Positions 1 through 49,067 of a stretch of 50,922 nt of DNA are shown here, piece after piece (position 1 is the first letter of the stretch; the number at the start of each line of letters is the position of its first letter). Where the stretch lies: the sequence record OR352937.1, one strand, 5' to 3'. The DNA is from Escherichia phage AV106. A model generated the notes under the pieces. The model was not told the origin of the DNA, ran no database searches, and saw nothing but the letters and a program-made list of their open reading frames with translations. The position numbers and the translations under genes are program-made.

Positions 1-10
1 ACAAAAAGTG

Positions 11-427
11 CTATTTCGTTAAATCGTATATTGCCAGCTTGAATTGCTCAAATCCGTATGCGACGGCAGAGAATCCTCCGCGATCCCGAACCTTTTTGAG
101 AAACTCCCTTTGCTTATCGCTGACTGGTGATGCCTTTCCTTTGCCGGACTTATTAACCCGCTTTAGTTCGATAGCTGCAAACGGGTAGCGTGAGTTTATA
201 CCAATCAGAATAACAAAGTCTGACACGCCTTTGAGTAATCCAGCCTGTTCATCCCTTAGCGCCGACGTTATTGTTTTTTCACCTTCATTAACTGTGTGCC
301 AAAATAGAAGCTGAGGAAAATTGTATTTCAACCAGGATACGCAATCTACTTGATGAGCGTCCTCCTTTCTCGTGTCGCTAGGATCTCGCTCGTAAAACTC
401 TAAGTAATCGCCTTTGTCTGTAATCAT
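11..427 (-). CDS. VRR-NUC-type nuclease (PD-(D/E)xK fold)
   Basis: 138 aa; GVSDFVILIG...AAIELKRVN resembles the VRR-NUC D...ExK core; 4-nt overlap with the helicase ORF; stop codon lies inside a dyad motif copy. Confidence 0.55.
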   Translation of the reverse strand: MITDKGDYLEFYERDPSDTRKEDAHQVDCVSWLKYNFPQLLFWHTVNEGEKTITSALRDEQAGLLKGVSDFVILIGINSRYPFAAIELKRVNKSGKGKASPVSDKQREFLKKVRDRGGFSAVAYGFEQFKLAIYDLTK

Positions 428-2442
428 TCCGGGATATCCTCCATACCGAAGTCTTTGCGTGAAATAATATCTTCTTTCTTCTGGTTGCGTCTATGAGTAA
501 CACGTACCGGATGCGCTATATGATGAGAGTATTGCACGATCTTGATAGCGTTCTTCATTCCGATAAAGTAGCGACGCATTTTAGGATCTGACACGTGAGG
601 TAATACTCCTTTCGTTTTCCATAGCGTACCGCAGATCTTAGAGTCTGACTCAGGGAAGAACTTTTCATACGCCTTAAACTCATCACCCTCATCGTTAATA
701 AGCGTGTATTTGTATATCACACCTTTTTGGTTTTTGGTTAACGTAACCTCAAAATTCTTGACCTCGTACCAGTCATTCTTAGTGTACGCCTTACCGGATA
801 ACTTAAGGTTAGGATCGACAAGAGAAACATCGCAACAGCGACAGACTCGGGCCACAACATCATTCTCGGCACCGCACCCTTTAACAAGAATTTTCCCGGT
901 ACGTTCATCAACTTGGTCCTCGCAAATCTGAGAAGTCCAGAAATGATCGCAGCGTTCACCGTCGATAACGTTAACGCAACGGCGAGCATAGAAGCTATTT
1001 ACGCAACCACATTTAGGACACGTTTTCGGGTCTTTTCCGTTCTCGAATCGCTTCTGAAACTGAGCCTGCTCAAGTATAGGGTCAAAATAAAGCTGCCCCA
1101 ACTCGTCCATCGTACCAGCAAAATCCCATACCAGATGATCTTGCTTAACCATTCCTTCAGCAACCTGCCAGGATTTAAGAAGTCGCATACCCCTACCCAA
1201 AAGCTGAATCAGCAAGGTAAGAGATCCTATCTTGCGAAGTATTACACTAAAATCCCAATTTGGAACGTTAACGCCAGTAGTTAGCGCCATGACCTGAAAG
1301 GTATATTTAATTTTCCCAGCCCTCACATCATCAAGAATCTTCTTGCGCGTTTTAGTGTCTGTGTCGCCAGTAATAATTGCATATGTGCTTCCTGGTGGTA
1401 GTGCCGCAGCCGCCTCTTTGCAGTGACGCACCCCGGCGCATGTAATCAGAACTGCGTTACGCTCTTCAGCCTTTTTGGCAACCATTTGCATGATTCGCTG
1501 GGTAAGAGATTTATCATGAAGGATCTCATCTTCCATTGCCTTCATATCTTTCTCTGTGAAGTCCTGCACCCCATCCTCGCTTGATGCCTTAAATTTATCA
1601 AGATCGTAGTGAACTCCGTCCGTCGAGCCGAATATAGTCGGAACGACTGAGCCAAACTCAATAAGGTAGTTGGTGTCTATATCAGTAACGCGCTCACGCC
1701 AGAAGCCTAACGCCTTTGGATTCTCAACAAGAATAGGAACTACACCCCTAAATTCAGATCCAGTCATACCAAATATTCTAAGATCGTGACCGTGAACCTC
1801 TTTACAGCGTCGCATCATTTCCATGATTACGATCGTGTACTGACTGCGCTTAGTTCCAAGAAGAGGCTTTCCATCATTACCAATCAGAGGAGTATCACCG
1901 TCCATGATAATTTTCCCTTTCTCTCCCCGCATCTGTTCCATTGTTTCCTTTCCGTCTATGGCTTGCGCAAGGTCTTCCCAATCCACCTGGTGACATTCAT
2001 CTATCCCGATTACGTGAGGGACAAAATCAGCCAACTCATTATTTAAACCATTTGCAACAGTGCCCTCAGAGCCTACCACGATCGGGAAGTAGCAAGACTT
2101 GATTCCAAGTGACGCTGAGAATATAGAGTTAGTCACTCCGAAATTGTCGATCTCTTCACTATCCTGATCGACAATTTCACCCTGGCGTGCCAGCACAAGC
2201 ATTTTCAAGCCCATTTTTTGACACTGCTTTGCAACCATAGCAAAAATGATGGTCTTACCCGCCGATACTGACGCTTTAACAAAGAATGGATGCTCATAAT
2301 TTGATAGGCGTTTTGCGATCTCAGCATAAGCAACAACCTGGTACGGATACGGAACTACCTCACCAACAGTGAATCGTTCTTGAGTGCGTTTTATATAGTC
2401 CTCGCCAAGTAATGCGATTTGCTTTTTGATGTTAATTGTCAC
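424..2442 (-). CDS. SF2 DNA helicase (DECH box) with C-terminal Cys-rich zinc-ribbon-like region
   Basis: 672 aa; Walker A-like SAGKT, GIDECHQ (DExH box); C-terminal CPKCGC...CxxxxxxxxC cluster; GTG start. Confidence 0.7.
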   Translation of the reverse strand: MTINIKKQIALLGEDYIKRTQERFTVGEVVPYPYQVVAYAEIAKRLSNYEHPFFVKASVSAGKTIIFAMVAKQCQKMGLKMLVLARQGEIVDQDSEEIDNFGVTNSIFSASLGIKSCYFPIVVGSEGTVANGLNNELADFVPHVIGIDECHQVDWEDLAQAIDGKETMEQMRGEKGKIIMDGDTPLIGNDGKPLLGTKRSQYTIVIMEMMRRCKEVHGHDLRIFGMTGSEFRGVVPILVENPKALGFWRERVTDIDTNYLIEFGSVVPTIFGSTDGVHYDLDKFKASSEDGVQDFTEKDMKAMEDEILHDKSLTQRIMQMVAKKAEERNAVLITCAGVRHCKEAAAALPPGSTYAIITGDTDTKTRKKILDDVRAGKIKYTFQVMALTTGVNVPNWDFSVILRKIGSLTLLIQLLGRGMRLLKSWQVAEGMVKQDHLVWDFAGTMDELGQLYFDPILEQAQFQKRFENGKDPKTCPKCGCVNSFYARRCVNVIDGERCDHFWTSQICEDQVDERTGKILVKGCGAENDVVARVCRCCDVSLVDPNLKLSGKAYTKNDWYEVKNFEVTLTKNQKGVIYKYTLINDEGDEFKAYEKFFPESDSKICGTLWKTKGVLPHVSDPKMRRYFIGMKNAIKIVQYSHHIAHPVRVTHRRNQKKEDIISRKDFGMEDIPE

Positions 2443-2480
2443 GGCTATTTAATCCTTTAAATCGTTGTATCGTTTACGAT

Positions 2481-2525
2481 ATAATACACGGCATACAGTA
2501 AACGTTTTTAGCAAAAAGTGCTACA
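2481..2525 (-). promoter_or_regulatory. Dyad-motif promoter upstream of the helicase gene
   Basis: Minus strand: TAGCA-N5-TGCTA, then 22 bp, then TATTAT in the loop of hairpin CGTTTAC...GTAAACG. Confidence 0.5.
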
Positions 2526-2536
2526 GGAGAATTAAT

Positions 2537-2989
2537 ATGAATATGAAACGTATCGCAGAGTCTACTGGTGAAATCGATAAACGTCACATCAATGGTAACA
2601 ACGGAACACGACGCGGTAAAGATAAAAAGCCTCGCCAGCGCTGCGGATTTTATATCCATAAAGAAGAAACGCGCGCAGGACTGAGAGCGCGATTGGATGC
2701 TCTTATTGAATATTATGGTGGTCCGGCGGCTTGCGCAAAGGCTCTGAAAGTTAGCAACCAGACGGTTCAAGGGTGGAAGGATCGAAATATGATTTCCTGG
2801 CAAGGCGCTGAAGCGGCGCATCGCGCTTATCGCCGACAGGGTTGCAAAGGATTTCGGGCCGCATGGCTGCGATTCGATCTGAAGTTTGATGGGAACGGCA
2901 AGTGCCTTGAGAAGCGCTGCAAAAACAAGAAGTTTATGCGGGTCGTGAAGAAGGAAGATATTGGAACGACAAATAGCATTTTTAGTTAA
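2537..2989 (+). CDS. HTH DNA-binding protein (Cro/YdaS-like), candidate regulator
   Basis: Start moved to ATG after RBS AGGAGA; GGPAACAKALKVSNQTVQGWKDRNMIS looks like a helix-turn-helix; basic C-terminus; followed by a strong terminator. Confidence 0.4.
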   Translation: MNMKRIAESTGEIDKRHINGNNGTRRGKDKKPRQRCGFYIHKEETRAGLRARLDALIEYYGGPAACAKALKVSNQTVQGWKDRNMISWQGAEAAHRAYRRQGCKGFRAAWLRFDLKFDGNGKCLEKRCKNKKFMRVVKKEDIGTTNSIFS

Positions 2990-30311: not shown

Positions 30312-30836
30312 TTAAAGCATATCAAGAATGCTGTTTACCGCCTCTTTCATCGCATCCTCAGTAGTGGCGACTACTGTCGATGCGGAAGCTGACGAGTTTT
30401 CGATATTGATTGAGGTTGGCTTATCGATTCCGAGATCCTTACCGATAAAGGAGGCATTAATAACACCGTTGGCGGCAAGCTGGAATTTTTGCTCATTGAT
30501 TACCGATTCCACAAACTCCATAACCTCGCTGTATTCTTCCTCTCGCTTCCACTTAATGATCGCGGCCTCGCTTGCACCGATGAATAGTCGGTATCCGGTC
30601 CAGGTGAAGACGCGCGGCTTATGAACTAGCGATTCATAAACGCCACCCTGAAAGCTGGCTGATTCTGACGCCTTGATTGCGTTGTCCTCAGCCCATTCGA
30701 AATACTTAACTGACAGATCGAATAGTTGCTCAGGCGTCATTGCCCGGTTTTTAGCAAGAACAGTGCCGAACTTTTTCTTGTATAGCTCTTTGAAATTGCC
30801 TCCCTGGACTACGGGGGCGTTCTTAGGTTCACTCAT
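30312..30836 (-). CDS. Terminase small subunit
   Basis: Start moved to ATG behind RBS AAAGAGGATGG; directly upstream of the large terminase gene; preceded by a dyad motif and a terminator. Confidence 0.5.
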   Translation of the reverse strand: MSEPKNAPVVQGGNFKELYKKKFGTVLAKNRAMTPEQLFDLSVKYFEWAEDNAIKASESASFQGGVYESLVHKPRVFTWTGYRLFIGASEAAIIKWKREEEYSEVMEFVESVINEQKFQLAANGVINASFIGKDLGIDKPTSINIENSSASASTVVATTEDAMKEAVNSILDML

Positions 30837-30888
30837 AAATCCATCCTCTTTGTTTAACATTTAGTGCTATTTTACCATATTGCAGGCA

Positions 30889-33952: not shown

Positions 33953-33998
33953 ATTCTATCAAATGCCCTTGAGCAAGTTTTAGCAATTAGTGCTATTA
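33953..33998 (-). promoter_or_regulatory. Dyad-motif promoter
   Basis: AATAGCACTAATTGCTAAAAC, 22 bp, TAGAAT (preceded by TGa) in the loop of AAGGGCAT...ATGCCCTT; upstream of the HAD gene. Confidence 0.55.
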
Positions 33999-34472: not shown

Positions 34473-34518
34473 ATCATAGCGCATCCCCCTTGATAGGTTT
34501 TAGCAATTCGTGCTATTC
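34473..34518 (-). promoter_or_regulatory. Dyad-motif promoter
   Basis: AATAGCACGAATTGCTAAAAC, 22 bp, TATGAT in the loop of GGGGGA...TCCCC. Confidence 0.55.
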
Positions 34519-36107: not shown

Positions 36108-36153
36108 ACTATATCAAATGGCCTTGCGGAAGGTTTAGCAATTCGTGCTATCG
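36108..36153 (-). promoter_or_regulatory. Dyad-motif promoter
   Basis: GATAGCACGAATTGCTAAACC, 22 bp, TATAGT (preceded by TGa) in a hairpin, then leader AACCAATCAGAGGAATCAGTT-ATG. Confidence 0.55.
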
Positions 36154-37363: not shown

Positions 37364-37394
37364 GTTCTCGTCCTCATTCGTTGTCGATGTGGTT

Positions 37395-37440
37395 ACTATA
37401 TCGCAACCACATGATCGCGTTTTAACAAAAAGTGCTATTC
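37395..37440 (-). promoter_or_regulatory. Dyad-motif promoter
   Basis: AATAGCACTTTTTGTTAAAAC, 22 bp, TATAGT in the loop of ATGTGGTT...AACCACAT. Confidence 0.55.
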
Positions 37441-38410: not shown

Positions 38411-38449
38411 GGTGAATCCTCTGATTGGTATCTCGTTTTGATGGGGTAA

Positions 38450-38495
38450 CTATAGCAAGATACCCCGATCCGTTTTTAACAATTCGTGCTATTTG
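38450..38495 (-). promoter_or_regulatory. Dyad-motif promoter
   Basis: AATAGCACGAATTGTTAAAAAC, 22 bp, TATAGT (preceded by TGc) in the loop of GGGGTA...TACCCC. Confidence 0.55.
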
Positions 38496-38958: not shown

Positions 38959-39153
38959 TTATGCCTCAGCAAAGTAAGTGTTAAATCCTTTGAGTTTGTA
39001 GTCGCTACCTACGCGCACCACGTTCCAGGCAAGTCCCGAGTGATATGCAACCATATCCTCAAGGTCGATCGTGATTTCGGTTCCTTTCTTGAACAGACCC
39101 TTTTCATGAGTTGAGTCGCGCTGAACAACCACTACGTCAATTTGCGTTTCCAT
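38959..39153 (-). CDS. Hypothetical small protein
   Basis: Start moved to ATG (METQIDVV) behind RBS GAGGAAAAGAAG; the track's N-terminal extension covers the promoter. Confidence 0.4.
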   Translation of the reverse strand: METQIDVVVVQRDSTHEKGLFKKGTEITIDLEDMVAYHSGLAWNVVRVGSDYKLKGFNTYFAEA

Positions 39154-39185
39154 CTTCTTTTCCTCTGTATCGTGTCGATGAGAAG

Positions 39186-39231
39186 ATAATACCCGATCCG
39201 CTCGACCGGGCTTTAACAAAAAGTGCTATTC
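39186..39231 (-). promoter_or_regulatory. Dyad-motif promoter
   Basis: AATAGCACTTTTTGTTAAAGC, 22 bp, TATTAT; upstream of ORF 38959..39153. Confidence 0.55.
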
Positions 39232-39486
39232 CATCAAAGTGAAGCAGCGAATTTTATTTGGCTTGAATAGGAATAGCTGGATGCCTTGCACCTTACCAAG
39301 ACTGATCATCTCTACGCCAAACTGTTTACGCACATACCGGACCAGCTCATCGGCTGGCGAACTCATCTGTAGTCCGAGGTGATGGAAACCGACAAACCCG
39401 TATGTTTCGGGGTTAAGCTGGAATGCCTCACCTGGATTGAGTTGCATCAATACACCTTTCAGGGAGTCATGCTTAATTTTGCTCAT
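39226..39486 (-). CDS. Hypothetical protein
   Basis: 86 aa; RBS GAGGAGAAG. Confidence 0.4.
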   Translation of the reverse strand: MSKIKHDSLKGVLMQLNPGEAFQLNPETYGFVGFHHLGLQMSSPADELVRYVRKQFGVEMISLGKVQGIQLFLFKPNKIRCFTLME

Positions 39487-39488
39487 GA

Positions 39489-40064
39489 TTACTTCTCCTC
39501 ATCCAGTAAATGTGAGCGGAATTGCTCGACCAGCTTATTGAGATCGGACACCGAGATATTGCTACCTTCAAAATCCCTCAAATCGATTTTGAACGCCTCA
39601 ACCTTCGCATTGAACACGTCGGCTATGCTCTTTCGCTTCCTACCTCTCTTGCCCTGTTTAGCTTCGCCTATGGCCTTCTCTGCTTCCTCGCCTTCGAGTT
39701 CGGTTATGAATATCGTCACCCCGTCAACCTGATCGCGGTTGATTCGCACAGATACGGCCTTATTGTGCGCCTTGAGCATGTGGCGCTTGATGATATTGGA
39801 CACGTACGACGCGGTGAGTCTCTCGAGCAACCAGGCTGATCGAGATGTGTACTCGTTAACGACTGCCTCATCGATCTGGTCATCGTTAAGTTCCACGCCC
39901 TGAGTAGCCTTTACAATCTCGGCCTGCTCATTGACGTACACTTCAACCATTTGCTTTCCAGTGACTGAGAAGTCATTCCCTGATTGGTGGATTTCAATCG
40001 CCTTTCGAATATAGTCCGGCAGGTTGAGTTCAAATTCTGTCACTTCTTTAAGCTGAGTTTTCAC
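39489..40064 (-). CDS. Hypothetical protein, first gene of the minus-strand early array
   Basis: 191 aa; GTG start with RBS GAGGT; C-terminal basic patch KQGKRGRKRK; adjacent to the repeat-rich control region. Confidence 0.4.
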   Translation of the reverse strand: MKTQLKEVTEFELNLPDYIRKAIEIHQSGNDFSVTGKQMVEVYVNEQAEIVKATQGVELNDDQIDEAVVNEYTSRSAWLLERLTASYVSNIIKRHMLKAHNKAVSVRINRDQVDGVTIFITELEGEEAEKAIGEAKQGKRGRKRKSIADVFNAKVEAFKIDLRDFEGSNISVSDLNKLVEQFRSHLLDEEK

Positions 40065-40111
40065 TTGTCTATACCTCGTTGTCTATGGGTGTAACTTTCA
40101 ACTTCGAAAAA

Positions 40112-40141
40112 CATGTTACAGCTACAACGTCAGGCGCGTCA
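40112..40141 (-). promoter_or_regulatory. Candidate sigma70-like promoter for the first minus-strand early gene
   Basis: Minus strand TTGACG, 18-bp spacer, TAACAT, about 40 nt upstream of the GTG start at 40064. Confidence 0.35.
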
Positions 40142-40348
40142 ATGTCTATAGCTGCATTTTTTATTTTTGTAACCAGTGCAACCGATGCAACCGACTTTTT
40201 CTATAAAAGTAAGCACATCTATTTATGCGCGCGGAATAGTATGTTTTTTATACTATGCATCACGAAATATATGCCACCATCAAAAAATGCGGTTGCACCT
40301 ATTACGCCGATTACATACCAATATATAATATAATAAATAAATAAATAT

Positions 40349-40427
40349 ATATTATCTATCTTATTATTATATATAGATATTTTATTATATATAGGCCCAT
40401 CGACTCGCTGGCCATTTTGTAACACCC
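40349..40427. repeat. AT-rich control module, copy B
   Basis: Same two anchor sequences (13 bp and 14 bp identical) with the same 52-bp spacing as copy A. Confidence 0.6.
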
Positions 40428-40677
40428 CTGATGGTATACAACTATTACGACAATTACAACTACCGCATAGACGAATAGCACGTTTTGCTAAAAATGGAGA
40501 TGACTACAAGGCGAACCGGGTAACACTAGATCCTCCCTCTCACAATCATTGCATTCCAAGCAACAATCACATCAACAGTTGCACATCATGCAACAATCAC
40601 ATTTCATCATTCGGGATCAATCAGGATCGCAATTATTCCAGATATTCCATTGCTGGTGGAATAATGAGCAACTATTG

Positions 40678-40724
40678 GAATAGCATTTTTTGCTAACGAC
40701 TTGGTCAGGCTGGCAGTGTATGAT
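40678..40724 (+). promoter_or_regulatory. Dyad-motif promoter for the C5-methyltransferase gene
   Basis: AATAGCATTTTTTGCTAACG, 23 bp, TATGAT, then leader CATCAACCAATCAGTAGGAGA. Confidence 0.5.
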
Positions 40725-40757
40725 TCATCACATCAACCAATCAGTAGGAGATTTGCA

Positions 40758-41462
40758 ATGAAATTAATCTGGTCGCTATTCGACGGTTCCGGTCTTGCTG
40801 GTCATGAACTGGCTAAGCAAGGTCACAAGGTGATGTGCTTCAACTTTGACGGAGCCGATCACGGGGATTATGCAAAGTACAATGCCCGGGTGGAGCATCC
40901 GAACATTGAGTATGTGAACGTGTTCATTGACGCAGCGTTTGAGCGTGATGCTATCGCTGGCGTGTATGGCAAGCCGGATTTCATTATGGCCTTCCCGCCG
41001 TGCACTGACCTGGCTGTTAGTGGTGCCGCTCACTTCGCAAGAAAGCGTGAACGCGATCCGTTATTCCAGGAGAAGGCTGTTGCCACCGCCCGGATTACTG
41101 CAAATATTGGCGACGCCCTGGGCGTGACTTACATCATTGAGAATCCGGTTAGCGTCCTGTCATCTGCCTGGAGAAAACCAAATCACTCCTTCAATCCCTG
41201 GGAGTATGGCGGCTATCTTCCTGAGAATGACTCACACCCCTGGTTCCCTATGTATATTGCGCCGCGCGATGCTTACCCGAAGAAAACTTGTCTGTGGACC
41301 TCTGACGATTTTGTCATGCCTGAAAGAAAACCTGTAAGCCTACCTGACGGGTACTCTGCACAGCACAGTAAGCTAGGCGGCAAATCTGCCAAAACTAAGT
41401 TGATACGATCCCTGTCGCCGCGTGGATTTTTCAAAGCGATCGCAAATAGCACTTTTTGTTAA
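40758..41462 (+). CDS. DNA (cytosine-5) methyltransferase, short Dcm-like
   Basis: Start moved to ATG behind a dyad-motif promoter and leader; motif I LFDGSGLAG (FxGxG), motif IV FPPC (catalytic Pro-Cys), motif VI IENPV (ENV-like). Confidence 0.55.
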   Translation: MKLIWSLFDGSGLAGHELAKQGHKVMCFNFDGADHGDYAKYNARVEHPNIEYVNVFIDAAFERDAIAGVYGKPDFIMAFPPCTDLAVSGAAHFARKRERDPLFQEKAVATARITANIGDALGVTYIIENPVSVLSSAWRKPNHSFNPWEYGGYLPENDSHPWFPMYIAPRDAYPKKTCLWTSDDFVMPERKPVSLPDGYSAQHSKLGGKSAKTKLIRSLSPRGFFKAIANSTFC

Positions 41463-41489
41463 AACTCGATCGGTGTGATTTGGCATAAT
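41445..41489 (+). promoter_or_regulatory. Dyad-motif promoter
   Basis: AATAGCACTTTTTGTTAAAAC, 22 bp, CATAAT; overlaps the 3' end of the methyltransferase ORF. Confidence 0.55.
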
Positions 41490-41522
41490 TACCTCATCGA
41501 AACGAGATTGAGGAAAAACAAA

Positions 41523-41708
41523 ATGGCACGTCGCATCACTAAAGACCTTAAAGTTCTGAACAAAGAAAACGTAGTTAAAATTCTGGTTATTTGGGGGTAC
41601 AACGAAGAATCAGCAAAGCAGAAGGTAGAAGCGGGTTACGATCTGGCTGTCAAAGCGATGCCTAACGACGACGCAAAAGGCATTGCAAACTATGTATCAT
41701 TCTTTTAA
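41523..41708 (+). CDS. Hypothetical small protein
   Basis: Start moved to ATG (MARRITKDL) after dyad motif, CATAAT and RBS GAGGAAAAA. Confidence 0.4.
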   Translation: MARRITKDLKVLNKENVVKILVIWGYNEESAKQKVEAGYDLAVKAMPNDDAKGIANYVSFF

Positions 41709-41723
41709 TTAACGGGCTAACAA

Positions 41724-41909
41724 ATGAAAACGAAATTAGTGCATAAATCAGAAATCAAGATAGGCGACACTGTGATTCACAACGGAGAGCTTAGAACTGT
41801 TGGTAAGGAGTCAATAACCAAAGATGAATTTATGGGGTTATTGTTGTTCGGCGACTCTTATCGCTTGGGTTACAAAATGGTTGAGCTTGTTGAGGAAGTA
41901 AAATTCTAA
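41724..41909 (+). CDS. Hypothetical small protein
   Basis: 61 aa. Confidence 0.35.
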   Translation: MKTKLVHKSEIKIGDTVIHNGELRTVGKESITKDEFMGLLLFGDSYRLGYKMVELVEEVKF

Positions 41910-41953
41910 ATAGCACGAATTGCTAAACGCCCCGAGGGGAATCGGGGTATAGT
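41908..41953 (+). promoter_or_regulatory. Dyad-motif promoter
   Basis: AATAGCACGAATTGCTAAACG, 22 bp, TATAGT in the loop of CCCCGA...TCGGGG, then leader CATCAACCAATCAGGAGA. Confidence 0.55.
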
Positions 41954-41984
41954 GAACACATCAACCAATCAGGAGAATCGCCAG

Positions 41985-42215
41985 ATGGCAATCAAACATC
42001 CCGGATTAAAGAAAGCAATCCAGCGAGCAAATGACGAGGGATTTATTGTATATCGCACACATTACGGTCACATGGGTGGACTTAAAGAGCATCATACAAA
42101 GGTTGAGCTTGTGGACTTGTGGGAGGATTACGATACATTCCAGTACATCGCCACGTCTGACGTAGAGGCGCAAGTGAAATACATCAATGACACTATTGAT
42201 AGCTTCAGAGGGTAA
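41985..42215 (+). CDS. Hypothetical protein
   Basis: Start moved to ATG (MAIKHPGL) behind leader AACCAATCAGGAGAATCGCCAG; dyad motif and TATAGT upstream. Confidence 0.45.
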   Translation: MAIKHPGLKKAIQRANDEGFIVYRTHYGHMGGLKEHHTKVELVDLWEDYDTFQYIATSDVEAQVKYINDTIDSFRG

Positions 42216-44275: not shown

Positions 44276-44320
44276 AATAGCACTTTTTGCAAAACGCGTG
44301 TACCATTGGCGGTGTATCAT
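44276..44320 (+). promoter_or_regulatory. Dyad-motif promoter
   Basis: AATAGCACTTTTTGCAAAACG, 22 bp, TATCAT in the loop of CGGTGTA...TACACCG. Confidence 0.55.
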
Positions 44321-44349
44321 TTACACCGTCAACTAAGGAGTTTATTGTG

Positions 44350-45918
44350 ATGTTTAATATTAAGCCAAAACTGAATTACCAACAGATTATTGAGATCGCC
44401 AATAGCACTGGAGTTAATCCGGTGGCGATCGCAATTCGTGAAAACAGCTATGGTGACTCAGTTTCATTTTGGCAAGATCCGATCGATATCAATAGCGGCA
44501 ACGATAAGTTCCCTCTGATTTCGTTAGGTGGCGATAACCTGGTATTCGAATATGCAAAAGCAAAGGCCGAGTCTGTACAGTTCCCTGTTTCGTCTGCGTA
44601 CGCTCATTTCATTGGGTGCATATCAGCCGCGATGCTCGGGAAGTTTTGGGTGCAATATCACGGAGAAGAACAACCAACCGCTCTTTACATGGTAATCAGC
44701 CAGCCACCGTCAACAGGTAAATCTGCGATTAACTCCGCAGCGATTACGCCTATGCGCGCAGAGATTCAGCGACTGAATGAAGAGCGAAAAAAGGAACGTA
44801 TCCGTTTAACCAGTCAGCTACGTCAGGTCGAGAAGGAAATTAAAAACGACCCGAAGGGTAACACGACGGCAGCGCTATACGAGGACAAGGAAAAACTGGA
44901 AGAAAAGATCAAGAAGATGGCTGATATTGTTTTCGCTGTATCAGATCCTACACCTGAAGGTCTTGCGAAGGTGGCGGCTGTTCAAGGTCACTTCTCAGTA
45001 ATCTCTGATGAGGCGACAGCAATCAACACATTGCTCGGCCTGACTTATGGCGGCTCTGATAAGAAATCAAACAGCGAACTTATCCTTAAGGCGTGGGATA
45101 AAAACCATATGGAGGTCGCGCGTTCAAACCAAGACAACAACTTATCTCTTTGCCCGGTCGGTTCGATCTGCGTCATTGCGCAGGATGAAACAATCAAGGG
45201 TATCATGGACGCAGGCCAGCGAGGCATCGGCGTATCTGAGCGTTTCCTTTTAGTTCGTGAGGAGCCGCTTTTAGGTACTCGTATTCTTTGTGATGAAAAT
45301 GGTGATGCGCTGTATAAGGAAGTCGATCGAGGATTGGTGAGTAAATATTATCGACTCGTGCACAACATCATGAAAGAGGATAACGTTGTTCTCTCTGTAA
45401 GCCGTAATGCTATGCGTGAATTAAACCTTGCGCGTCAGGCTATGGAACCGGATTTCGCCGCAGGTGGGAAATACTCTCACTCAATGCTACGCGGTCATCT
45501 CGGCAAGTTCGATAAGCACGCCTTGCGTATTGCTTCAGTTCTCCACACGATCAAAAATTGGGATGGTGAATCACCGAACCGTTCCAACCGTGAGATTGAC
45601 CTTGAAACGATGCAGGAAGCAATCATGATCTTCAATGAGCTTTCCAGGACTTATCTGTCGTCTGCCAGCGCTGCCGGGTATGCAGGTGATGAGGCTGAAT
45701 CTCGTAAGCTGATTGATGTTATCACTGAGATCGCGAAGAAGAACAAAGGCCGCGCACCTATTCATAGCATCGTTGCAAAGTGCCGGAACGTTACTCCGTT
45801 CAACGGTCAACAGAAAGTATCTGAGAGAATAGATAGCCTGCTGATCACGCTCGAAGAGATGAACTACACTTGCCGCATTGATGATATTGTTTTCATCAAT
45901 CCTAGACTGATGGGTTAA
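44350..45918 (+). CDS. P-loop NTPase, candidate replication or helicase-loader ATPase
   Basis: Start moved to ATG behind RBS AAGGAG; Walker A-like QPPSTGKSA; long Lys/Glu-rich helical segment. Confidence 0.4.
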   Translation: MFNIKPKLNYQQIIEIANSTGVNPVAIAIRENSYGDSVSFWQDPIDINSGNDKFPLISLGGDNLVFEYAKAKAESVQFPVSSAYAHFIGCISAAMLGKFWVQYHGEEQPTALYMVISQPPSTGKSAINSAAITPMRAEIQRLNEERKKERIRLTSQLRQVEKEIKNDPKGNTTAALYEDKEKLEEKIKKMADIVFAVSDPTPEGLAKVAAVQGHFSVISDEATAINTLLGLTYGGSDKKSNSELILKAWDKNHMEVARSNQDNNLSLCPVGSICVIAQDETIKGIMDAGQRGIGVSERFLLVREEPLLGTRILCDENGDALYKEVDRGLVSKYYRLVHNIMKEDNVVLSVSRNAMRELNLARQAMEPDFAAGGKYSHSMLRGHLGKFDKHALRIASVLHTIKNWDGESPNRSNREIDLETMQEAIMIFNELSRTYLSSASAAGYAGDEAESRKLIDVITEIAKKNKGRAPIHSIVAKCRNVTPFNGQQKVSERIDSLLITLEEMNYTCRIDDIVFINPRLMG

Positions 45919-47924: not shown

Positions 47925-49067
47925 TCCTGTCATTTCTGGACGATAGATGAATCGACCGATTTCACCAAACTGTTTATCGTAAACGATTACCGCCGCCTGG
48001 CGATATGAGCGCCACCCGCCTCGCGCTGCGTATGCATCTTTCGCGCCTAACTGCCCGTGAACCTCATCAATACCTAACGAGTGCTCAGTGATTGTCTGAT
48101 GATGCCAGTGTCCGCTATGCGTGTACACGTATTTGCTTTCACCAAAATCTGCGCGGAAATCTGCTGCCATAGCTGCGAGTCGAGTCTCTGCTTTTTTCAT
48201 CGTGTGACCGTGAGTATATCCCAGCAAAGTATTTCCCCAGCGAGTCTTATGTAGAACCATAGGGCTTACGTCAACGAATACTCTTGGCTCGTCTTCATAG
48301 TATGCAGCCATTGCGGCGCGCAACCAAATCATCCCGGCCTGGTCGTGGTTTCCTTCGACAACCTGAACTTCGACCTCTTTGTGTTTAGTCAGCATTTTGT
48401 CGATAGCTCGTCGCACCGATCGAATAGCCACATGCACCAATTTCGCATATCGTGAATCCTGATCCAGAACGTGACCACTTGCCGGGGTAACAGCATCAAG
48501 ACCGTCTGAGTGAAGGAAGTCGCCGCCGATTAACAGAACAGCCTTCTCTGCGTTCGGGGCAATATCGATCGCGTAGTTAAAGAAGTCATTCAGCACTTTT
48601 TCCGCTACGTCTGTAGAGTAGTTCTCTCCGCATTCATGCTTGTGAGCAAGCGCGCCAATGTGAAGATCGAACACCGGGTAGAGTGCTAGCTTGCCAATAG
48701 CGGTTGTAAGCCCTTGCGAGGTGAGTAGCTCAGTTGGTTTTGCTCGCGGCAAGTCTTCACAGAATGCAATACGCGCTGCTTCCATCATTGCAGCAATCTT
48801 CTCTCGGTCCTGATCGGTCTTAACCCATCGCACTACCTCGGTCCCATCGCCGCGAATCATCGTTGATGTGCCTTTTACCATGAATCCTTCCGGTACGTTC
48901 TTAGCAACATGCTCGTTACCGTGGAAGTGACCTTCTTTTGCAAGTTTGGCGTGACGCGCTTCAACTGTGCGGATGTGCATACCGTACTTTTCCGCGATCT
49001 CGCGAAGTGTAAGGCCGCTCATGCGCTCTTCGATAAGTTGCTCGGTAGTGATTTTAGCTTGTGACAT
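47916..49067 (-). CDS. Calcineurin-like metallophosphoesterase with N-terminal HTH domain
   Basis: 383 aa; N-terminal LTLREIAEKYGMHIRTVEARHAKL (HTH-like); phosphoesterase motifs GDFLHSD, GNHD, GHWHH. Confidence 0.6.
   Translation of the reverse strand: MSQAKITTEQLIEERMSGLTLREIAEKYGMHIRTVEARHAKLAKEGHFHGNEHVAKNVPEGFMVKGTSTMIRGDGTEVVRWVKTDQDREKIAAMMEAARIAFCEDLPRAKPTELLTSQGLTTAIGKLALYPVFDLHIGALAHKHECGENYSTDVAEKVLNDFFNYAIDIAPNAEKAVLLIGGDFLHSDGLDAVTPASGHVLDQDSRYAKLVHVAIRSVRRAIDKMLTKHKEVEVQVVEGNHDQAGMIWLRAAMAAYYEDEPRVFVDVSPMVLHKTRWGNTLLGYTHGHTMKKAETRLAAMAADFRADFGESKYVYTHSGHWHHQTITEHSLGIDEVHGQLGAKDAYAARGGWRSYRQAAVIVYDKQFGEIGRFIYRPEMTGSH

Follow-up and report, generated by a model that had tools for sequence, protein, structure and literature searches.

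In iteron replicons, a single protein autoregulates its own promoter and marks the adjacent unwinding region, and in both lambda (O/ori) and plasmids (Rep/iterons) the protein and its sites are inherited together. Extended packaging-start (pac) sites with bent DNA are likewise known, from SPP1. For the classical phage T1, neither origin nor pac has been defined at the sequence level, and we found no T1 origin or transcription map in the accessible literature. The SU57 paper placed the pac of T1 and other T1-like phages in the untranslated region that corresponds to the one analyzed here (PMC7718038). In TLS, pac was mapped via a submolar restriction fragment and assigned by likeness to the P22 pac (AGATTT), and no iterons were reported anywhere in the genome (PMC11447400). 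TLS and T1 also carry a 21-nt intergenic repeat with the consensus aaATAGCACnnnTTGnTAAAA, the role of which is an open question (German et al. 2024, PMC11447400). Here, we describe the corresponding gap of Escherichia phage AV106 (sequence record OR352937.1; the window is the whole stretch of 50,922 nt), a non-coding region of ~690 bp between the divergent ORF 39489-40064 on the minus strand (hereafter L1) and a DNA methyltransferase gene with its ATG at 40758.

On balance, we read this gap as a composite element, in which the right half would hold pac and the first rightward promoter, and the left half would form a swappable specificity cassette consisting of L1 and a set of short DNA words. 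As far as the accessible literature shows, an L1-plus-word cassette with at least four natural specificities appears to be new.

The window is, by its sequence, a T1-like siphophage genome of the genus Tunavirus (Drexlerviridae). A megablast search with positions 39400-41500 matched 74 phage records, the closest being vB_EcoS-DELF2 at 93% identity, and in all relatives inspected the equivalent place is a gap of 650-700 bp that separates two divergent arrays of small early genes. The gap (37% GC) falls into two halves with differing histories. The right half (40475-40757) is kept in about 70 relatives, most of which match only rightward of 40475, while the left half (40065-40474) is common only to DELF2, phiL, SH6 and Chapo, and 0% of it is alignable with the LeonhardEuler (LE) and T1 types described below. 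An Rfam scan of 39000-42000 (E<=1) returned no RNA family, and the window has no tRNAs. Candidate small ORFs inside the gap (such as 40079-40333 and 40549-40683) lack a ribosome-binding site (RBS) and are mostly unannotated in relatives.

Pairwise blastn homology to LeonhardEuler ends at 39499, after entering the 3' end of L1 by ten bases, and restarts at 40475; what is exchanged as one unit is therefore L1 plus the left part of the gap. By L1 type, eleven genomes form three groups, with a distinct word at fixed positions in each, and a metagenomic contig adds a fourth (Table 1). Counted from the L1 start codon, all types share one layout: a tandem pair of 7-9-bp words at ~113-131 bp, an inverted copy at 213-227 bp in all four Tunavirus types, and then a block of at least 90% A+T at ~240-330 (the AT block; 244-331 in T1, 239-315 in LeonhardEuler and 246-316 in type 4). 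Where the window has its tandem pair, the same slot is occupied by TGTCTAG x2 in the LE type, GTTAATC x3 in the T1 type and GTGTACAC in type 4. The LE and T1 types have an additional word copy on the far side of the AT block, at 300-390 bp from the promoter, and one copy each in the 5' untranslated region (5'UTR) of L1.

We found the repeats-plus-AT-block layout in seven other lineages. In TLS, TGTTCACG is repeated in tandem with a period of 9, with an inverted copy beyond the AT block; Klebsiella phages have the layout with other words (TAGGTAA; ATGAACA). The AT block lies at 232-271 in KMI8 and is also visible in TLS and Sin4. In the TLS gap the word stands at ~415-435 on the minus strand, and its inverted copy reads CGTGAACG. 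Within the window type, comparison of a diverged pair revealed that the non-coding left half is 79% identical versus 69% (nucleotide) for the L1 gene, with the words, their flanks and the AT block almost unchanged and the tandem pair kept in the relative whose L1 is 71% identical. An earlier reading made from the letters of this stretch (the sequence-only reading) had made conservation in relatives a test of the repeats. This conservation is present for the right-half repeats, but the left-half words are replaced by others at the same positions; replacement of a word together with its neighboring gene speaks for function rather than against it.

L1 type and word co-vary perfectly in four types and 13 genomes, and L1 is the only co-varying protein among those tested (L1, the small terminase TerS and the C-terminus of the helicase). 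Two other candidate readers of the words were rejected: for the helicase C-terminus (142 residues), considered because of the analogy with P4 alpha, identity between cassette types is 98.6-99.3%, and for TerS it is 97-99.5%. As both are essentially invariant, neither reads the words. The co-variation therefore indicates that the words are probably L1 binding sites; we consider it reasonably probable that they are sites for a cassette-encoded protein, and L1 is predicted to bind DNA from its co-variation with, and linkage to, the words. The sequence-only reading had named two candidate binders, ORF 39489-40064 and the P-loop ATPase (the helicase), of which the former co-varies with the words and the latter does not.

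Sequence, profile and structure searches with L1 revealed no recognizable initiator fold, helix-turn-helix (HTH) or DNA-binding motif. Pfam gave just a weak sub-threshold match to DUF7174, the PHROGs matches are families of unknown function, a PDB sequence search found nothing, and the AlphaFold2 (AF2) model (pLDDT 83.6) had no fold match in Foldseek (best E = 0.04). A disordered basic stretch, KQGKRGRKRKS, separates a variable N-terminal domain from C-terminal helices. The window-type L1 is 24-28% identical to the other types; the LE and T1 types are 53% identical to each other, with nearly identical C-terminal parts and different N-terminal parts. Scanning IMG/VR with L1 returned two loci only, both from already-known phages.

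The words lie close to a probable leftward early promoter of sigma-70-like type, P_L, predicted by a promoter scan. A minus-strand TTGAC occurs at gap position 74 in the window type, 83 in LE and 86 in T1, the P_L block is conserved in the diverged window-type pair, and the tandem words sit 25-35 bp upstream of the P_L -35 in Tunavirus. In KMI8, words at gap positions 40, 53 and 96 flank the predicted promoter core around TTGAC at 86-90. The promoter and terminator scan gave two promoter-like hits in the gap versus a shuffle mean of 3.7, and with fewer hits than in shuffles the gap is therefore not rich in consensus sigma-70 promoters. We propose that L1, as the first product of the leftward early promoter, would bind the tandem words upstream of its own promoter as well as the inverted word on the near side of the 85-bp AT block, and would control early leftward transcription at least.

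Turning to the right half, we aligned the circular junction of T1 to the window. The T1 reference record annotates its terminal redundancy as repeat_region 1..2800; its base 1 falls at 40594 (minus strand) and its base 48836 at 40595, with the base 1 region aligning to the gap at 89.7% identity. The break lies between GCAAC and AATCA, inside the second copy of the 13-mer GCAACAATCACAT and the third copy of CAATCA. As the T1 genome end maps inside the CAATCA array, the right half would be the pac region, and we regard this location of pac as likely, placing it through the records of relatives and the T1 annotation. The records of JMPW1, JMPW2, phi2457T, FCWL1 and Chapo open at most 2 bp from the T1 base 1 position, and those of Shfl1, SH2, IME167, Henu5_2 and IME347 open 54-86 bp leftward of it. 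In total, the records of eleven phages open across 40509-40595, where ~0.1 would be expected with random opening, and they use at least four distinct positions within 87 bp, although some surely copy the T1 convention. TLS base 1 likewise falls within the homologous gap, at 588 bp from gp01, amid a CAATCA-like array. With four same-strand copies of CAATCA in 90 nt, the array is the densest such window of the genome (~0.001 windows expected), and the 13-mer pair is embedded in a 24-nt repeat (83% identical).

The terminase proteins fit a headful mechanism of the P22 kind. TerS is of the P22 gp3 type (PF16677 GP3_package, E=8e-10; phrog_606) and 98.9% identical to T1 TerS, and TerL matches Terminase_6C and phrog_38. 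About 75% of the columns at 40475-40698 are invariant in ten genomes, and this strong conservation of the right half fits that of TerS across Tunavirus. In KMI8, GACTATTG x2 (31-bp spacing) replaces the Tunavirus 13-mer pair (30-bp spacing), and Klebsiella-phage TerS matches are <60% identical as a group, a comparison of site with TerS that spans only two genera. We propose that the small terminase would recognize the same-strand CAATCA / GCAACAATCACAT array and make a first cut at about 40594 to 40595, and that pac is thus probably narrowed to an ~80-bp array with a candidate motif. Going by the T1 map, packaging would run leftward in window coordinates, with the headful filled via L1 towards terS (30312-30860) and terL, and would yield a terminal redundancy of roughly 2.8 kb as in T1.

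This placement agrees with pac of T1 and TLS in occupying the same divergent gap between small-early-gene arrays, with a P22-gp3-type TerS and headful packaging, but the candidate CAATCA / 13-mer array is unlike the P22 pac sequence. In P22, Sf6 and SPP1, moreover, pac is inside or beside terS, whereas the candidate site here is about 10 kb from it. The sequence-only reading had listed GCAACAATCACAT x2 among the repeats of a candidate origin and missed pac; the pair sits at the T1 packaging start, outside the origin-like part of the gap, and its copies begin at 40560 and 40590 rather than 40559 and 40586. The three GATC sites of the gap (40529, 40615 and 40625; 3.5 expected) are all in the right half, two of them on either side of the fourth CAATCA copy and 20-30 bp away from where T1 is cut; as their count is not above expectation, this placement may be meaningless.

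Several observations weigh against the composite reading. On the packaging side, the first 13-mer copy is merely 62% invariant across 10 genomes and the CAATCA array is absent from KMI8 and SXFY507. The exact T1 end is taken from a GenBank annotation that several records probably followed as a convention, and termini of T1-like phages are often missed by PhageTerm. On the cassette side, the window type has merely three word copies, their 9-bp tandem spacing is unlike the 20-22 bp of classical iterons, and L1 has no detectable homology to TLS gp01 or to the first leftward genes of Klebsiella phages (hhalign probability <1%).

The right half also holds two copies of the 21-nt repeat (ATAGCAC...TTGCTAA), both matching the published consensus. 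Copy 2 (40678-40698) lies 80 nt before the ATG at 40758, where an RBS is present, with TATGAT 23 nt after TTGCTA; measured from its dyad at 40681 it is 77 nt upstream of the start codon and is oriented with transcription, in line with the ~76 nt published for the T1 family. By contrast, copy 1 (dyad at 40476) lacks both a -10 hexamer at 22-23-nt spacing and any following gene, and it stands at the mosaic junction. Of the eight dyad sites in the window, six have a -10-like hexamer 22-23 nt after TTGCTA: 2509-2523(-), 33981-33995(-), 34501-34515(-), 36136-36150(-), 40681-40695(+) and 41911-41925(+). This places TTGCTA 5 nt farther out than a normal -35 would lie, and four of the sites have their -10 enclosed by a GC-rich inverted repeat (GGGCAtttgaTAGAATGCCC and CCCCGaggggaatCGGGGTATAGT are two examples). 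The arrangement suggests a phage- or factor-dependent promoter class.

Next to the second dyad, two copies of TATTCCA (40634 and 40643) and two of TGGAATA (40657 and 40676) form a quartet whose words and spacings are identical in T1, LeonhardEuler, KMI8 and Sin4, and whose core is found in >100 Klebsiella phage records. It resembles an operator placed ahead of the first rightward promoter. At the quartet position, TLS has another tandem palindrome, GACCAATCGGTC x2. The cassette junctions 39499 and 40475 coincide with the last L1 codons and the first base of the orphan dyad, which suggests that the conserved 21-nt repeat could serve as a crossover point for cassette exchange.

Table 1. Features of the gap and its neighbors (window coordinates), followed by the four cassette types, whose word positions are counted from the L1 start codon.
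Feature	Position	Strand	Basis or remark
L1, first leftward early ORF, 191 aa, GTG start	39489..40064	-	ORF list, co-variation
GTCTAT x3 (GTCTATA two copies, GTCTATG one)	40067, 40081, 40144	+	sequence read
P_L, TTGACG, 18-nt spacer, TAACAT	40113..40142	-	promoter scan, predicted
TGTTACAG	40114-40121		within -10 region of predicted P_L
GCAACCGA x2, tandem pair of GCAACCG(A), period 9	40178-40185, 40187-40194	+	sequence read
CGGTTGC, inverted third copy of GCAACCG word	40290-40296	-	directly left of AT block
AT block, >=90% A+T, TATATA-rich	40309-40394	.	composition
ATTTTGTAACACCC	40414-40427		sequence read
21-nt repeat copy 1, GAATAGCACGTTTTGCTAAAA	40473..40493	+	orphan; right-hand junction of cassette
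Dyads	40476-40490, 40681-40695		cores of 21-nt repeat copies
CAATCA array x4, including GCAACAATCACAT x2	40543..40623 (40543, 40564, 40594, 40618)	+	candidate pac
GCAACAATCACAT x2	40560-40572, 40590-40602	+	sole exact copies in window
TATTCCA-N2-TATTCCA-N7-TGGAATA-N12-TGGAATA quartet	40634..40682	.	last copy overlaps dyad 2
21-nt repeat copy 2 and -10 hexamer TATGAT (40719-40724)	40678..40724	+	methyltransferase dyad promoter
DNA methyltransferase gene, first rightward gene	40758..41462	+	phrog_757, E=1e-83
Helicase, DUF3987, phrog_2373	44287-45918		~85-aa C-terminal segment matches separate phrog_7327, unknown function
Window type, L1 191 aa	GCAACCG 113/122, inverted 226		window, DELF2, Chapo, 71%-identical relative
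LE type, L1 171 aa	CTAGACA 121/129, 213, 363		LeonhardEuler, Sfin-1, pSf-2, IME18, phi2013, BIFF
T1 type, L1 191 aa	GATTAAC 116/125/134, 216, 387, 31		T1, ISF001
Fourth type, L1 173 aa	palindrome GTGTACAC at 112 and 224		metagenomic contig

The motifs named by the sequence-only reading all exist, with coordinates off by 1-4 bases. Its three GTCTATA repeats are indeed three GTCTAT sites, of which only two read GTCTATA and the third reads GTCTATG. This set sits in the L1 5'UTR and beside the -35 of P_L, with an inverted ATAGAC at 40467, and is the weaker evidence because the 40081 copy is lost in the diverged relative. The GCAACCGA pair is present as described, with the inverted third copy overlooked, and the TA-rich module given as 40344-40380 is real but wider. 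The degenerate dyad at about 40477 does lack a -10 at the 22-23-nt spacing of the six other copies, and the dyad promoter of the methyltransferase gene at 40678-40724 was correctly seen, with TATGAT, RBS and ATG following; these dyads were noticed without being recognized as the published T1/TLS repeat. The description of the region as the main early control region agrees with the divergent arrays, a P_L -35 kept in all types and the methyltransferase dyad promoter.

The short repeats might in principle be chance or low-complexity by-products of an AT-rich spacer, given that two-copy 8-mers are expected in 693 bp (about 3.5 such pairs, so that any one is at chance level), that the gap is 37% GC and that one GTCTAT copy is unconserved. 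Against 200 dinucleotide shuffles, however, we counted 10 7-mers occurring at least three times versus 3.3 +/- 2.0 (maximum 9) and 3 such 8-mers versus 0.33, an excess that is stronger still in the T1 and KMI8 gaps, and genome-wide the dyads number 8 versus 0.15 expected. The gap repeats collectively exceed chance. Moreover, word positions are kept while the words change, in four Tunavirus types and three further genera, and the adjacent gene has diverged more than the non-coding DNA. This explanation is thus largely refuted, and we give it next to no weight.

Whether the whole gap is instead one extended pac, in which the AT block and words bend or organize DNA for the terminase much as pacL/pacR of SPP1, seems improbable to us. 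The genome end does map in the gap, and the AT block would lie 200-285 bp inside the first-packaged DNA. Yet phages with 0% alignable sequence between their left halves have TerS proteins that are 97-99.5% identical, and the left half co-varies with L1 rather than with the terminase.

The two functions that compete most closely for the left half are transcription control and replication initiation, and the order of gene, promoter, direct words, inverted word and AT block would suit an iteron replicon and, equally, an operator that acts by looping. Control of transcription alone by L1 is a serious possibility, if somewhat short of an even chance. As a pure switch, L1 would act as an early autoregulator or shut-off protein, much like p4 at the divergent control region of phi29, the words as P_L operators and the AT block as promoter or curved DNA that plays no part in replication, a proposal to which we assign a similar standing. 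The words lie directly upstream of the conserved P_L -35 in Tunavirus, flank and overlap the predicted promoter core in KMI8 and SXFY507, and recur in the L1 5'UTR of T1 and LE; L1 would be transcribed before any other gene, T1-family genome ends have highly variable early genes, and non-homologous replacement in other genera is easily explained for a regulator. A switch leaves unexplained why an 85-bp near-pure AT block is position-conserved across genera 170-260 bp upstream of P_L and nearly invariant in the diverged pair, and why word copies lie beyond it, 300-390 bp from the promoter. These are features that an origin would accommodate: L1 would be the initiator and the words its iterons, and binding on both sides would melt the AT block for loading of the conserved P4-alpha-like primase and DUF3987 helicase. 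We rank an origin role second to transcription control and consider it rather unlikely, as we do this particular mechanism.

In its favor, direct words, inverted word and AT block (85 bp, >=90% A+T) are position-conserved across genera with word copies on both sides of the block, protein and sites are inherited as one unit, and the variable N-terminal half and near-identical C-terminal part of L1 in LE and T1 are the pattern of a specificity domain joined to a conserved-partner domain. In the window, GCAACCG at 40178 and 40187, inverted at 40290, stands beside the AT-rich tract as repeated sites do in iteron origins. No origin was found for the T1 family in the accessible literature. The cumulative GC skew has its minimum at 40-41 kb, but it follows gene orientation at every strand switch and is therefore uninformative on the origin; we rejected it as a marker. 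The gap has no DnaA box (TTWTNCACA, either strand) and GATC is at expectation (3 versus 3.5), although neither DnaA boxes nor GATC clusters are obligatory for phage origins. L1 lacks a recognizable initiator fold, and other genera have non-homologous proteins in its place with primase and helicase still conserved, and the words are short, few (three in the window) and 9 bp apart. What stands of the "strong candidate origin" of the sequence-only reading is thus a plausible left-half layout; DnaA boxes are absent, GATC is unenriched and skew tracks orientation. The still more specific proposal, that the cassette is the T1-family replication origin with a swappable, fold-unassigned initiator beside pac, we hold to be less likely again. 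If it were true, replication start, early transcription and packaging start would share one 0.7-kb gap.

The composite reading can be set against described systems on either side. Like iteron replicons (plasmid Rep, lambda O/ori and P4 alpha with its type I repeats), the cassette has a protein beside its repeats, direct and inverted copies adjoining an AT-rich tract, copies near the protein's own promoter, and a variable protein part that co-varies with the repeats. It differs in having words of 7-9 bp at a tandem spacing of 8-9 bp and in merely 3-6 copies, in the absence of DnaA boxes, and in an L1 without Rep/winged-helix (WH) or lambda-O-like fold. With phi29 p4/p6 and the lambdoid Cro/operators, it shares a divergent promoter gap, short words in both orientations and an adjacent gene for the predicted binder, L1, that would be transcribed first, and its specificity cassettes pass between relatives as immunity regions do. 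Here, by contrast, L1 has no HTH or recognizable DNA-binding motif, the sites are set apart by a large AT block, the phage is virulent and the probable pac is in the same gap.

With four or more specificities occurring naturally, a swap experiment is in effect already available, and knowledge of pac and the origin would aid the engineering or rebooting of T1-like phages as well as the study of how they transduce. Further points touch the P4 analogy. The T1-family primase and helicase are P4-alpha-like, and the TLS word TGTTCACG is one base off the type I ori repeat of the satellite phage P4, TGTTCACC. By the same analogy, the C-terminal segment of the helicase could be a DNA-binding domain; as this C-terminus is invariant across Tunavirus, any site that it read should be conserved, possibly in the right half.

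Additional features were observed in and around the gap. Between the word pair and the inverted word, a third, degenerate dyad-like palindrome, GGAATAGTATgtttttTATACTAT (40233-40257), resembles the left arm of the 21-nt repeat, and the diverged relative retains its GGAATAG. Relatives differ in their first rightward gene: the LeonhardEuler record annotates the methyltransferase as a Dcm-like C5 methyltransferase, T1 has no methyltransferase at the gap, and the DELF2 gene is annotated as two CDS, possibly through a frameshift or sequencing error. In Sfin-1, pSf-2 and phi2013, a further small ORF of 144-213 nt separates the methyltransferase gene from the gap. Finally, intergenic segments of ~60-90 bp at 37378-37438, 38421-38492, 39140-39229 and 41444-41515 cross-match in blastn, with opposite orientation on either side of the gap. 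They probably combine a terminator with a dyad promoter and could act as recombination linkers for mosaic exchange of early genes.

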